NCBI RefSeq assembly: GCF_011045215.1
Contig: NZ_CP049201.1
Source: Escherichia coli
GTDB lineage: Bacteria; Pseudomonadota; Gammaproteobacteria; Enterobacterales; Enterobacteriaceae
DNA: 64,000 nucleotides
Direction: 5' to 3' (one strand)
A program made the translations under genes and the position numbers. Shown here in pieces: positions 46,176-58,017 of the stretch (the first letter of the stretch is position 1; each line of letters begins with the position of its first letter). The notes beneath the pieces were generated by a model. That model saw only the letters and a program-made list of their open reading frames with translations. It searched no databases and was not told the origin of the DNA.

Positions 46176-46299
46176 TAAAAGCGTGTTATACTCTTTCCCT
46201 GCAATGGGTTCCGTAGCAGGGAAAGAGACCCCGTTGTCTCTTCCCGGTATTTCATCTCTATGTCACATTTTGTGCGTAATTTATTCACAAGCTTGCATT

Positions 46300-54609: not shown

Positions 54610-55356
54610 ATGCATTATGCCGTTGTCGCCATGCTTGAAATGCTTTGCTGTATCCACGCTTACCGTACCGGACAAGAGCGATATTGGTTTTTTATCATCT
54701 TCTGTTTTCCGGTGATTGGTTGCGTGGCGTATTTTGTCATGGTGATGCTGCCAGAAACGGGCGCTGACCGTCACGGGCGTACCTTTCTGATGCGCCTGCA
54801 GGACAAACTCAACCCTGAGCGCCACCTGCGCAAATTAACCGAAGAACTGGCGATTGCCGAGACGAATCAAAACCATTATGCGTTGGCTAATGAACTGGCG
54901 CGTCTGGGGCGTTATCACGAAGCTGTTCCCCATTATCAGCAGGCGTTAAGCGGGATATTCGCCCATGAAGCGGCAATGATGCTAAGCCTGGCGCAGGCAC
55001 AGTTTGCTATTCAGGAGTTCGCCGCCTGTCAGCAGACGCTGGAAGATGTGATGCGTTATAACCCTGATTTTCATTCGGCAGACGGGCATTTGTTATTTGC
55101 CAGAACGTTAGCCGCACAAGAAAAATACGCTGATGCGGAAAGCGAGTTTGAAGTATTGATTTCTTATTACCCCGGCCCGCAGGCGCGTATTTACTATGCG
55201 GAAATGTTGGCGAAAATGAGTCGGTTACGTGAAGCCAACGAGCAGTATGTTGCCGTAGTTGATACGGCTAAACGCTCAAGACCTCATTATAGAAAACACC
55301 ACCGGGAATGGATTAAGACCGCCAATGAACGGCTGAAGCAGAGTGTGGTGCAATGA
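54610..55356 (+). CDS. Hypothetical membrane-anchored TPR-like protein
   Basis: 248-aa ORF with E. coli-like codon usage; hydrophobic N-terminal ~45 aa (two likely TM helices) then helical repeat-like sequence rich in Ala/Leu/Tyr/Gln; hairpins with T-runs follow at 55366-55400 and 55486-55519. Confidence 0.6.
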   Translation: MHYAVVAMLEMLCCIHAYRTGQERYWFFIIFCFPVIGCVAYFVMVMLPETGADRHGRTFLMRLQDKLNPERHLRKLTEELAIAETNQNHYALANELARLGRYHEAVPHYQQALSGIFAHEAAMMLSLAQAQFAIQEFAACQQTLEDVMRYNPDFHSADGHLLFARTLAAQEKYADAESEFEVLISYYPGPQARIYYAEMLAKMSRLREANEQYVAVVDTAKRSRPHYRKHHREWIKTANERLKQSVVQ

Positions 55357-55365
55357 AAATCTTCT

Positions 55366-55400
55366 TTGCCGTTAGACCAGTGTCGCGGCAATCTTTTGTT
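55366..55400 (+). terminator. Hairpin plus T-run immediately after the TPR-like ORF
   Basis: TTGCCG / CGGCAA stem with 14-nt loop, followed by TCTTTTGTT. Confidence 0.4.
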
Positions 55401-55485
55401 AAAATTGAAAAATGTAGCTCTCATCGGGCAGCAAAACTGGACGCAGAATTTGCTGCCATTTTTGCTCTTCATGGTAAGGAGTTCT

Positions 55486-55519
55486 GGCGATTAGCTGGCC
55501 GTTAATCGCCTCTTTTCAG
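55486..55519 (+). terminator. Second hairpin plus T-run upstream of the ugpB promoter
   Basis: 8-bp stem GGCGATTA / TAATCGCC with 9-nt loop, followed by TCTTTTC. Confidence 0.45.
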
Positions 55520-55568
55520 TGCATTCTCGGGATATCCGTGCCCCATCTCCCATTTTCCCTCACCCACG

Positions 55569-55598
55569 CCGTCACCGCCTTGTCATCTTTCTGACACC
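55569..55598 (+). promoter_or_regulatory. Pho box array (PhoB binding) in the ugpB promoter
   Basis: Three 7-mers at 11-bp phase (ccgtcac, ttgtcat, ctgacac) approximating CTGTCAT direct repeats, about 120-150 bp upstream of ugpB. Confidence 0.5.
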
Positions 55599-55715
55599 TT
55601 ACTATCTTACAAATGTAACAAAAAAGTTATTTTTCTGTAATTCGAGCATGTCATGTTACCCCGCGAGCATAAAACGCGTGAATTCGCGCATTCGGTACAA
55701 CAAGAGAGATAAACG

Positions 55716-57032
55716 ATGAAACCGTTACATTATACAGCTTCAGCACTGGCGCTCGGACTGGCGTTAATGGGGAATGCACAGGCAGTGACGACCATTCCGT
55801 TCTGGCATTCTATGGAAGGGGAACTGGGTAAAGAGGTGGATTCTCTGGCCCAACGTTTTAACGCCGAAAACCCGGATTACAAAATTGTACCGACCTATAA
55901 AGGCAACTACGAACAGAATTTAAGCGCGGGGATTGCCGCATTTCGTACCGGCAACGCGCCGGCTATTTTGCAGGTTTATGAAGTTGGCACCGCCACCATG
56001 ATGGCGTCTAAGGCCATTAAACCGGTATATGACGTGTTTAAAGAGGCGGGGATTCAATTCGATGAGTCGCAGTTTGTGCCGACGGTTTCCGGTTACTACT
56101 CCGACAGCAAAACGGGCCACTTACTCTCCCAGCCATTCAACAGCTCGACCCCCGTTCTCTATTACAACAAAGACGCCTTCAAGAAAGCAGGATTAGACCC
56201 GGAACAGCCGCCGAAAACCTGGCAGGATCTGGCGGACTATTCTGCAAAACTGAAAGCCTCCGGTATGAAGTGCGGCTACGCCAGCGGCTGGCAGGGCTGG
56301 ATCCAACTGGAAAACTTTAGCGCCTGGAACGGTCTGCCGTTTGCCAGCAAAAACAACGGCTTTGACGGCACGGATGCGGTGCTGGAGTTCAACAAGCCGG
56401 AGCAGGTGAAACACATCGCCATGCTCGAAGAGATGAACAAGAAGGGCGATTTCAGCTACGTCGGGCGTAAGGATGAATCCACCGAGAAGTTCTATAACGG
56501 TGATTGCGCGATGACCACCGCCTCTTCCGGTTCTCTCGCTAATATTCGTGAGTACGCCAAATTTAACTATGGCGTAGGCATGATGCCTTACGACGCCGAT
56601 GCGAAAGATGCACCGCAAAACGCCATTATCGGCGGGGCCAGCCTGTGGGTGATGCAGGGCAAAGATAAAGAAACGTATACCGGCGTGGCGAAGTTCCTCG
56701 ACTTCCTCGCGAAGCCAGAAAACGCTGCCGAGTGGCATCAGAAAACCGGTTATCTGCCAATCACCAAAGCAGCGTATGACCTGACCCGTGAGCAGGGCTT
56801 TTATGAGAAAAACCCAGGGGCGGATACCGCGACGCGTCAGATGCTGAATAAGCCGCCGTTGCCGTTCACCAAAGGGCTGCGTCTGGGCAACATGCCGCAG
56901 ATCCGCGTGATTGTGGATGAAGAGCTGGAGAGCGTGTGGACCGGTAAGAAGACACCACAGCAGGCACTGGATACCGCCGTTGAGCGTGGAAATCAGTTGC
57001 TGCGCCGCTTTGAGAAATCGACGAAGTCTTAA
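55716..57032 (+). CDS. ugpB: Periplasmic sn-glycerol-3-phosphate-binding protein
   Basis: 438-aa ORF with signal peptide ([23 protein letters not shown]). Confidence 0.92.
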
Positions 57033-57110: not shown

Positions 57111-57129
57111 AGTTCAGGAATTAACCGTA

Positions 57130-58017
57130 ATGTCATCATCCCGTCCGGTGTTCCGCTCGCGCTGGCTGCCTTATCTGCTGGTCGCGCCGCAGCTCATCAT
57201 CACCGTTATCTTTTTTATCTGGCCTGCGGGCGAAGCGTTGTGGTACTCGCTGCAAAGCGTCGATCCGTTTGGTTTCTCCAGCCAGTTTGTCGGCCTGGAT
57301 AACTTCGTCGCGCTGTTTCATGACAGCTACTATCTCGACTCCTTCTGGACGACGATAAAATTCAGCACCTTTGTCACCGTCAGCGGTTTGCTGGTATCGC
57401 TGTTCTTTGCGGCGCTGGTGGAGTACATCGTGCGCGGCAGTCGTTTCTATCAAACCTTGATGCTGCTGCCGTATGCCGTGGCTCCCGCTGTTGCCGCCGT
57501 ATTGTGGATCTTCCTGTTTAACCCCGGTCGCGGGCTGATCACCCATTTTCTCGCTGAGTTCGGCTACGACTGGAACCACGCGCAAAACAGCGGTCAGGCA
57601 ATGTTTCTGGTGGTGTTTGCCTCAGTATGGAAGCAAATCAGCTACAACTTCCTGTTCTTCTATGCCGCGCTGCAATCCATTCCCCGTTCGTTGATCGAAG
57701 CCGCAGCCATCGACGGTGCAGGGCCGATTCGCCGCTTCTTTAAGATTGCGCTGCCGCTTATCGCCCCAGTGAGCTTCTTCCTGCTGGTAGTGAACCTGGT
57801 GTATGCCTTCTTCGACACCTTCCCGGTGATCGACGCCGCCACGTCCGGCGGGCCGGTTCAGGCCACCACGACGCTGATTTATAAGATCTACCGCGAAGGC
57901 TTTACCGGACTGGATCTGGCTTCGTCTGCCGCACAGTCGGTGGTGTTGATGTTCCTCGTCATCGTGCTGACGGTGGTGCAGTTCCGCTATGTTGAAAGCA
58001 AGGTGCGTTACCAATGA
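57130..58017 (+). CDS. ugpA: G3P ABC permease
   Basis: 295-aa polytopic ORF. Confidence 0.9.

Follow-up and report, generated by a model that had tools for sequence, protein, structure and literature searches.

Three phased heptamers upstream of ugpB and the known PhoB-binding array of the Escherichia coli ugpBAECQ promoter

In the pstS and phoB promoters of Escherichia coli, direct TGTCA half-sites recur with an 11-bp phase and form more than one 18-bp box in a single helical register, as they do at ugpB, and the proximal pho box replaces the -35 element in its geometry relative to the -10. The distance from box to -10 is 10 bp in phoA, phoB, phoE, and pstS. For ugp, Kasahara et al. 1991 reportedly distinguished three pho boxes, with an upstream promoter overlapping an "upstream third pho box." A pho box is defined as two CTGTCAT-like 7-bp direct repeats with a 4-bp A/T-rich spacer, giving an 11-bp period (PMC4447250). 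The same paper describes an overlapping alternative ugp promoter, for which inhibition by PhoB~P is suggested (PMC4447250), and according to the summary of Kasahara 1991 in PMC4415409 the downstream promoter of the operon contains multiple pho boxes and the upstream one contains a cAMP-CRP consensus. Like ugpB, the psiE promoter of E. coli, which is under dual control by PhoB and cAMP-CRP, brings phosphate and carbon signals together at one regulatory region (PMC4415409).

In vivo binding of PhoB upstream of ugpB has been mapped in K-12. The ChIP-seq peak is centered at NC_000913.3:3592453, and its score of 35 is exceeded in the genome only by that of pstS (38); the MEME motif reported for it is TGTCATCTTTCTGACACC (PMC10294691). 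The RNA level of ugpB was 54,461 in the wild type versus 2,830 in a phoB deletion strain, and the site was described as broadly conserved (Fitzgerald et al. 2023, PMC10294691). By ChIP-chip, Yang et al. 2012 reported CTATCTTACAAATGTAAC as the ugpB motif (PMC3465305).

Here we examined a 64-kb stretch of DNA from another E. coli strain, referred to as the window. Its sequence is 100% identical to that of strain NRZ14408 and matches in 5,424 of 5,426 complete genomes. The genes at the locus are, in order, livM-livG-livF, a gene for a TPR protein (54610-55356), ugpB, ugpA, and ugpE. The TPR protein is a membrane-anchored protein of 248 amino acids with Pfam TPR_19 and TPR_2 matches; K-12 MG1655 lacks the gene and has a short, repeat-rich spacer after livF instead. 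From about 55533 to the ugpB ATG, a distance of roughly 183 bp, the window is identical to MG1655 at every base, so published K-12 data apply to it directly (K-12 coordinate = 3592325 + [55716 - w], where w is the window position). This is therefore the same element as the K-12 ugpBAECQ regulatory region (Fitzgerald et al. 2023), with the same sequence, gene, and PhoB motif instances, in a different strain. A first-pass annotation had placed the ugp promoter downstream of the TPR reading frame, and this is where it lies: the 183 bp 5' of the ATG are unchanged in K-12, which does not have the frame.

The difference from K-12 lies 5' of about 55533 and outside the array, where the TPR gene and a terminator-like hairpin stand in place of the K-12 spacer. 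The TPR insertion ends just 5' of the ugp regulatory region. A query spanning the 3' flank of the TPR gene was at least 80% covered in only 640 of 5,424 E. coli genomes. The hairpin, GGCGATTAGCTGGCCGTTAATCGCC followed by TCTTTT (55486-55510), lies 3' of the TPR gene and just 5' of the ugp control region, which it may insulate from read-through.

Within the intergenic region, the local sequence cacg CCGTCAC cgcc TTGTCAT cttt CTGACAC c contains three heptamers whose start-to-start distances are exactly 11 and 11 bp. The first-pass annotation had recorded this spacing, and direct reading bore it out at a level far above chance; the interval it gave, 55569-55598, holds the triplet and ends one C too far. 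A search of both strands of the 64-kb window with the degenerate pattern YYGWCAY-N4-YYGWCAY-N4-YYGWCAY gave a single match, and 100 dinucleotide shuffles gave none. Because this pattern was designed post hoc, from sequence already seen, we also applied an independent PhoB weight matrix of 18 positions, whose training set was the 58 ChIP-seq motif instances that Table 1 of Fitzgerald et al. 2023 (PMC10294691) gives for sites besides ugpB. The training sites (n = 58) have a median of 15.7 bits and a 10th percentile of 11.1 bits. Under this matrix without ugpB, the 18-mer spanning the second and third heptamers (55581-98) scores exactly the training-site median, and the one spanning the first and second (55570-87) lies just above the 10th percentile. 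The sum of the two scores ranks first among 127,944 positions in the window and was attained in 1 of 200 whole-window dinucleotide shuffles. TTGTCAT-CTTT-CTGACAC (55580-97) is a pair of 7-bp direct repeats with a 4-bp A/T-rich spacer, in agreement with the pho-box definition, and the spacer between CCGTCAC and TTGTCAT is the G/C-rich CGCC. Tandem Repeats Finder reported no 11-bp array at the locus because the units are too divergent.

The triplet belongs to a longer series. On the plus strand between 55540 and 55680, positive matrix scores occur at only six positions, and these form an 11-bp ladder of seven half-sites, H1 to H7 (55569-55641, see the table). The ladder sums to 60 bits, a value never approached in 200 shuffles, of which the highest reached 17. 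The earlier proposal that the three heptamers are pho boxes thus needs extension: they are PhoB half-sites of the ugpB promoter, and they make up only the distal three of seven. A repeat finder pairs GTCATCTTTCTG (55582-93) with GTTATTTTTCTG (55626-37), 44 bp or 4 x 11 bp apart. This pairing favors a reading of H2-H3 and H6-H7 as equivalent 18-bp boxes, and of H2H3, H4H5, and H6H7 as the boxes, with a 22-bp period. We therefore infer that the array consists of three 18-bp pho boxes plus an extra upstream half-site at 55569. The core of H3 is TGACA, versus the consensus TGTCA. In contrast to pstS and phoB, the best box of ugpB is the distal one and the proximal ones are weak (15.7 versus 9.9 and 8.5 bits), and the array is longer, with seven half-sites, and interleaved with a second, CRP-dependent promoter. 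ATGTCAT at 55648 was considered as an eighth half-site; it lies 13 bp from H7, not 11, and an extended -10 fits it better.

Features of the ugpB upstream region. H, half-site; scores are from the PhoB matrix; the conservation column gives, for species other than E. coli, the percentage of the 74-75 loci (74 for H1-H2, 75 for H6-H7) with more than 6 bits.
Feature	Position	Strand	Sequence or elements	Score (bits)	Conservation	Remarks
CRP-like site	55537-55552	+	CGTGC-N6-TCCCA			weak, speculative; 3 mismatches to TGTGA-N6-TCACA
H1	55569-55575	+	CCGTCAC			extra in-phase half-site
H2	55580-55586	+	TTGTCAT
H3	55591-55597	+	CTGACAC
H4	start 55602	+	CTATCTT
H5	start 55613	+	ATGTAAC
H6	start 55624	+	AAGTTAT
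H7	start 55635	+	CTGTAAT
18-mer, H1-H2	start 55570	+		12.0	49%
18-mer, H2-H3	start 55581	+		15.7	14%
18-mer, H3-H4	start 55592	+		7.8	44%
18-mer, H4-H5	start 55603	+		9.9	79%
18-mer, H5-H6	start 55614	+		10.9	79%
18-mer, H6-H7	start 55625	+		8.5	96%
Distal pho box (proposed pairing)	55580-55597	+	H2, spacer CTTT, H3	15.7		highest-scoring PhoB site of the region
Middle pho box (proposed pairing)	55602-55619	+	H4, spacer ACAA, H5	9.9
Proximal pho box (proposed pairing)	55624-55641	+	H6, spacer TTTT, H7	8.5		at -35 position
Candidate sigma-70 promoter P2	55580-55608	+	-35 TTGTCA (55580-85), 17-bp spacer, -10 TATCTT (55603-08)			overlaps H2 to H4
Putative extended -10	55649-55657	+	TG-t-CATGTT			starts 10 bp after H7
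ugpB CDS	55716-57032	+	ATG at 55716			regulated gene, first of ugpBAEC

The published binding data coincide with this array. The ChIP-seq peak center maps to window position 55588, and TGTCATCTTTCTGACACC, at 55581-55598, covers the second and third heptamers. CTATCTTACAAATGTAAC is window 55602-55619, the middle box, directly downstream of the triplet. H1 lies outside both published motif instances. Alignment with the K-12 ugpB promoter, proposed in the first-pass annotation as a check, thus gave identity and put the published ChIP-seq motif on two of the three heptamers. The phosphate starvation control of ugp, with which it had found the triplet to be in keeping, agrees with K-12, in which the identical DNA is occupied by PhoB in vivo and ugpB RNA depends on PhoB. 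Across E. coli, the array was found at an identity of at least 95% in 5,424 of 5,426 complete genomes.

Conservation of the array was assessed by searching a single genome of each species with the UgpB protein, which gave 80 Enterobacterales loci, each anchored on the invariant proximal half-site. Scores above 6 bits recur at the ladder positions in other species (see the table) and were found at 0 of 6,380 out-of-register positions upstream of ugpB in the 74-75 other species. Half-sites H5 to H7 are kept in nearly all loci, and the proximal box reads GTTATTTTTCTGT[A/C]AT without variation in 21 aligned Enterobacteriaceae. H4 is the consensus CTGTCA in most other genera of Enterobacterales and CTATCTT in Escherichia, Citrobacter, Pseudocitrobacter, Klebsiella pneumoniae, Kluyvera, and Pluralibacter gergoviae. 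The H2-H3 18-mer exceeds 6 bits in so few of the other species that the strong distal box is largely specific to the Escherichia lineage. H3 is kept as CTGAC(A/G), with A and not the consensus T, in about 30 Enterobacteriaceae species, including species without elements resembling P2. That a base other than the PhoB consensus is conserved here hints that the position is under an extra constraint.

The TCA core of H1 is retained across Enterobacteriaceae. One step 5' of H1, the position H0 carries the consensus CTGTCA in Citrobacter and Pseudocitrobacter and has decayed in E. coli, where the H0-H1 18-mer scores -3.7. Because H0 is intact in the first two genera and decayed in E. coli, H1 most plausibly represents the half that survives of a fourth box, of which it is probably a relic. 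With so poor an upstream partner, H1 may be nonfunctional in E. coli. Six Citrobacter and Pseudocitrobacter loci (L005, L012, L015, L017, L033, and L047) have a full extra box H0-H1 of 11-13 bits at about -158 from the ugpB ATG, so the length of the array varies between genera.

Downstream of the array, TGTCATGTTA was found with at most one mismatch in 78 of 81 upstream sequences examined. The arrangement GTTATTTTTCTGT[A/C]AT, about 6 nt, and then [A/G]TGTCATGTTA is conserved from Escherichia to Erwinia, Yersinia, Serratia, and Sodalis. TGTCATGTT consists of TG, one base, and CATGTT, in which A2 and T6 are retained, and is the likely extended -10 of the PhoB-dependent promoter. CATAAA (55668-73) was also considered as a -10, but it is lost in several more distant genera, whereas TGTCATGTTA is conserved. 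Transcription from the PhoB-dependent promoter is predicted to start near 55664, which would put the triplet at about -95 to -67. The triplet ends 54 bp 5' of the putative -10 (55652), and the position of an activating box, at -35 and about 10 bp from the -10, is occupied by the proximal box (55624-41) and not by the triplet. This distance suggests that the heptamers represent distal, auxiliary boxes of the same array and not the box that contacts sigma-70.

Taken together, the sequence architecture, the statistical excess, the in-register conservation, and the PhoB occupancy and PhoB-dependent expression published for identical K-12 DNA lead us to conclude that the triplet very probably forms the end farthest from the promoter in the known array of PhoB sites that controls ugpBAECQ in E. 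coli. During phosphate starvation, PhoB~P dimers bind the TGTCA-type half-sites head to tail, and since an 11-bp repeat is about one helical turn, the half-sites lie on one face of the DNA. The distal box, which is both the best matrix match and the center of the ChIP-seq peak, is the probable high-affinity entry site and probably nucleates or stabilizes PhoB on the weaker proximal boxes. The proximal box would stand in for the -35 element, 10 bp 5' of the extended -10 TGtCATGTT, and PhoB bound there would recruit sigma-70 RNA polymerase. On the distal box, PhoB would cover the -35 of the cAMP-CRP-dependent upstream promoter, so that this carbon starvation promoter would be shut off.

A candidate for the upstream promoter is P2, the only sigma-70-like match within 55340-55740. 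P2 is consistent with the CRP-dependent promoter of the literature, which overlaps the pho boxes and which PhoB represses, and the distal box probably overlaps the -35 of that promoter. TTG[TC]CAT at H2, CTATCTT at H4, and the CRP-like [C/T]GTG...C.CA (55537-52) occur together in the window and in 14 loci of one clade, and in 0 of 61 other loci, although this co-occurrence is weak evidence because it tracks phylogeny. Outside the clade with P2-like elements, the CRP-like site is not kept at a fixed distance. The heptamers could be, in the main, the core of an upstream sigma-70 promoter, with TTGTCA as its -35 and the likeness to pho half-sites secondary. That P2 draws its -35 from the second heptamer, and that its two hexamers co-occur in one clade, speaks for this proposal, but the co-occurrence may reflect mere shared ancestry. 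Moreover, a promoter at this position is compatible with PhoB binding and is not an alternative to it, and it leaves unexplained the first and third heptamers, the 11-bp phasing, the ChIP-seq peak at 55588, and the in-register conservation in species without P2-like elements. We regard it as a reasonable possibility that the balance of the data does not favor.

A different reading of the second and third heptamers is that they are primarily a CRP site, TGTCATCTTTCTGACA, acting as an inverted repeat for the carbon starvation promoter instead of or besides PhoB. The GTG/CAC triplets matter most in CRP-DNA recognition. TGTCATCTTTCTGACA (55581-96) is only two mismatches from the CRP core TGTGA-N6-TCACA, but both mismatches fall within these triplets. 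The palindrome TGTCA-N6-TGACA also scores 11.3 bits on the minus strand with the PhoB matrix, and TGTCA-N6-TGWCA is found nowhere else in the window; in relatives, however, H3 is CTGACG or CCTTCA and the palindrome is lost. The window holds no excess of matches to the CRP core with up to three mismatches (157 observed versus 199 expected). Published work places a CRP-dependent promoter over the pho-box region (PMC4447250, and PMC4415409 in its summary of the operon), but ChIP-seq assigns the site to PhoB (PMC10294691). The mismatches in the triplets and the loss of the palindrome in relatives make a primary role in CRP binding unlikely, and we give it little credence. Chance resemblance in a pyrimidine-rich intergenic region, for which one could cite that single 7-mers with 5/7 matches are common and that Tandem Repeats Finder called no repeat here, is already refuted by the shuffles (0/100 for the degenerate pattern, 1/200 for the summed score, and 0/200 for the full ladder), by conservation strictly in register between species, and by PhoB occupancy of the site in vivo, and has next to no probability.

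With the triplet read as the distal end of the PhoB array, the comparison between genera allows a tentative and rather doubtful joint account of H1, H4, and the distal box. The E. coli array would reach past the boxes commonly cited for it, and H1 would be the surviving half of a fourth box that is intact in Citrobacter and Pseudocitrobacter. In the lineage of Escherichia, Citrobacter, and K. pneumoniae, the ancestral consensus CTGTCA of H4 would have been converted to TATCTT, the -10 of a new, embedded CRP-dependent promoter, and strengthening of the distal box would have compensated for the change. If this account were true, a promoter would have been born inside a transcription factor array.

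The triplet is part of the textbook ugp pho-box array, already known, and the finding is correct but ordinary. It recognizes anew, and correctly, a textbook promoter of the Pho regulon in an E. coli strain other than K-12, and leaves current understanding unchanged. Only two points are mildly new: H1 looks like what is left of a fourth box, and in one clade a half-site may have been turned into the -10 of a promoter embedded in the array. The control region of ugp has stayed intact despite the insertion of a TPR gene between livF and ugpB. The half-site comparison over 80 Enterobacterales loci may be of modest use for phosphate depletion switches based on the ugpB promoter and for work on the evolution of PhoB arrays and overlapping promoters.

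The predicted ugpB leader contains a very strongly conserved CGCG-rich block, CGCGAGCATAAAACGCGTGAATTCGCGCAT (55660-55692). A search of 55340-55760 against Rfam with E values up to 1 gave no match, and RNAalifold found no consensus structure for the leader in a 66-sequence alignment. In Enterobacteriaceae, the stem of the hairpin or palindrome ACGCGTGAATTCGCGC is invariant and its loop varies; at this place, Pectobacterium carries CGCC...GGCG. The block may act as a 5' hairpin of the mRNA or as an operator.

Elsewhere in the window, ATTAACCGTAATGTCATC (57120-57137) scores 13.2 bits with the PhoB matrix in the ugpB-ugpA spacer, overlapping the ugpA start codon. As no separate published ChIP-seq peak lies at this position, the match is probably due to chance. 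The top match of the window is TTTCATCTCTATGTCACA (46250-46267) with 16.8 bits, which belonged to the training set of the matrix. It is a weak PhoB ChIP-seq site upstream of rpoH, with a ChIP score of 2 (PMC10294691).
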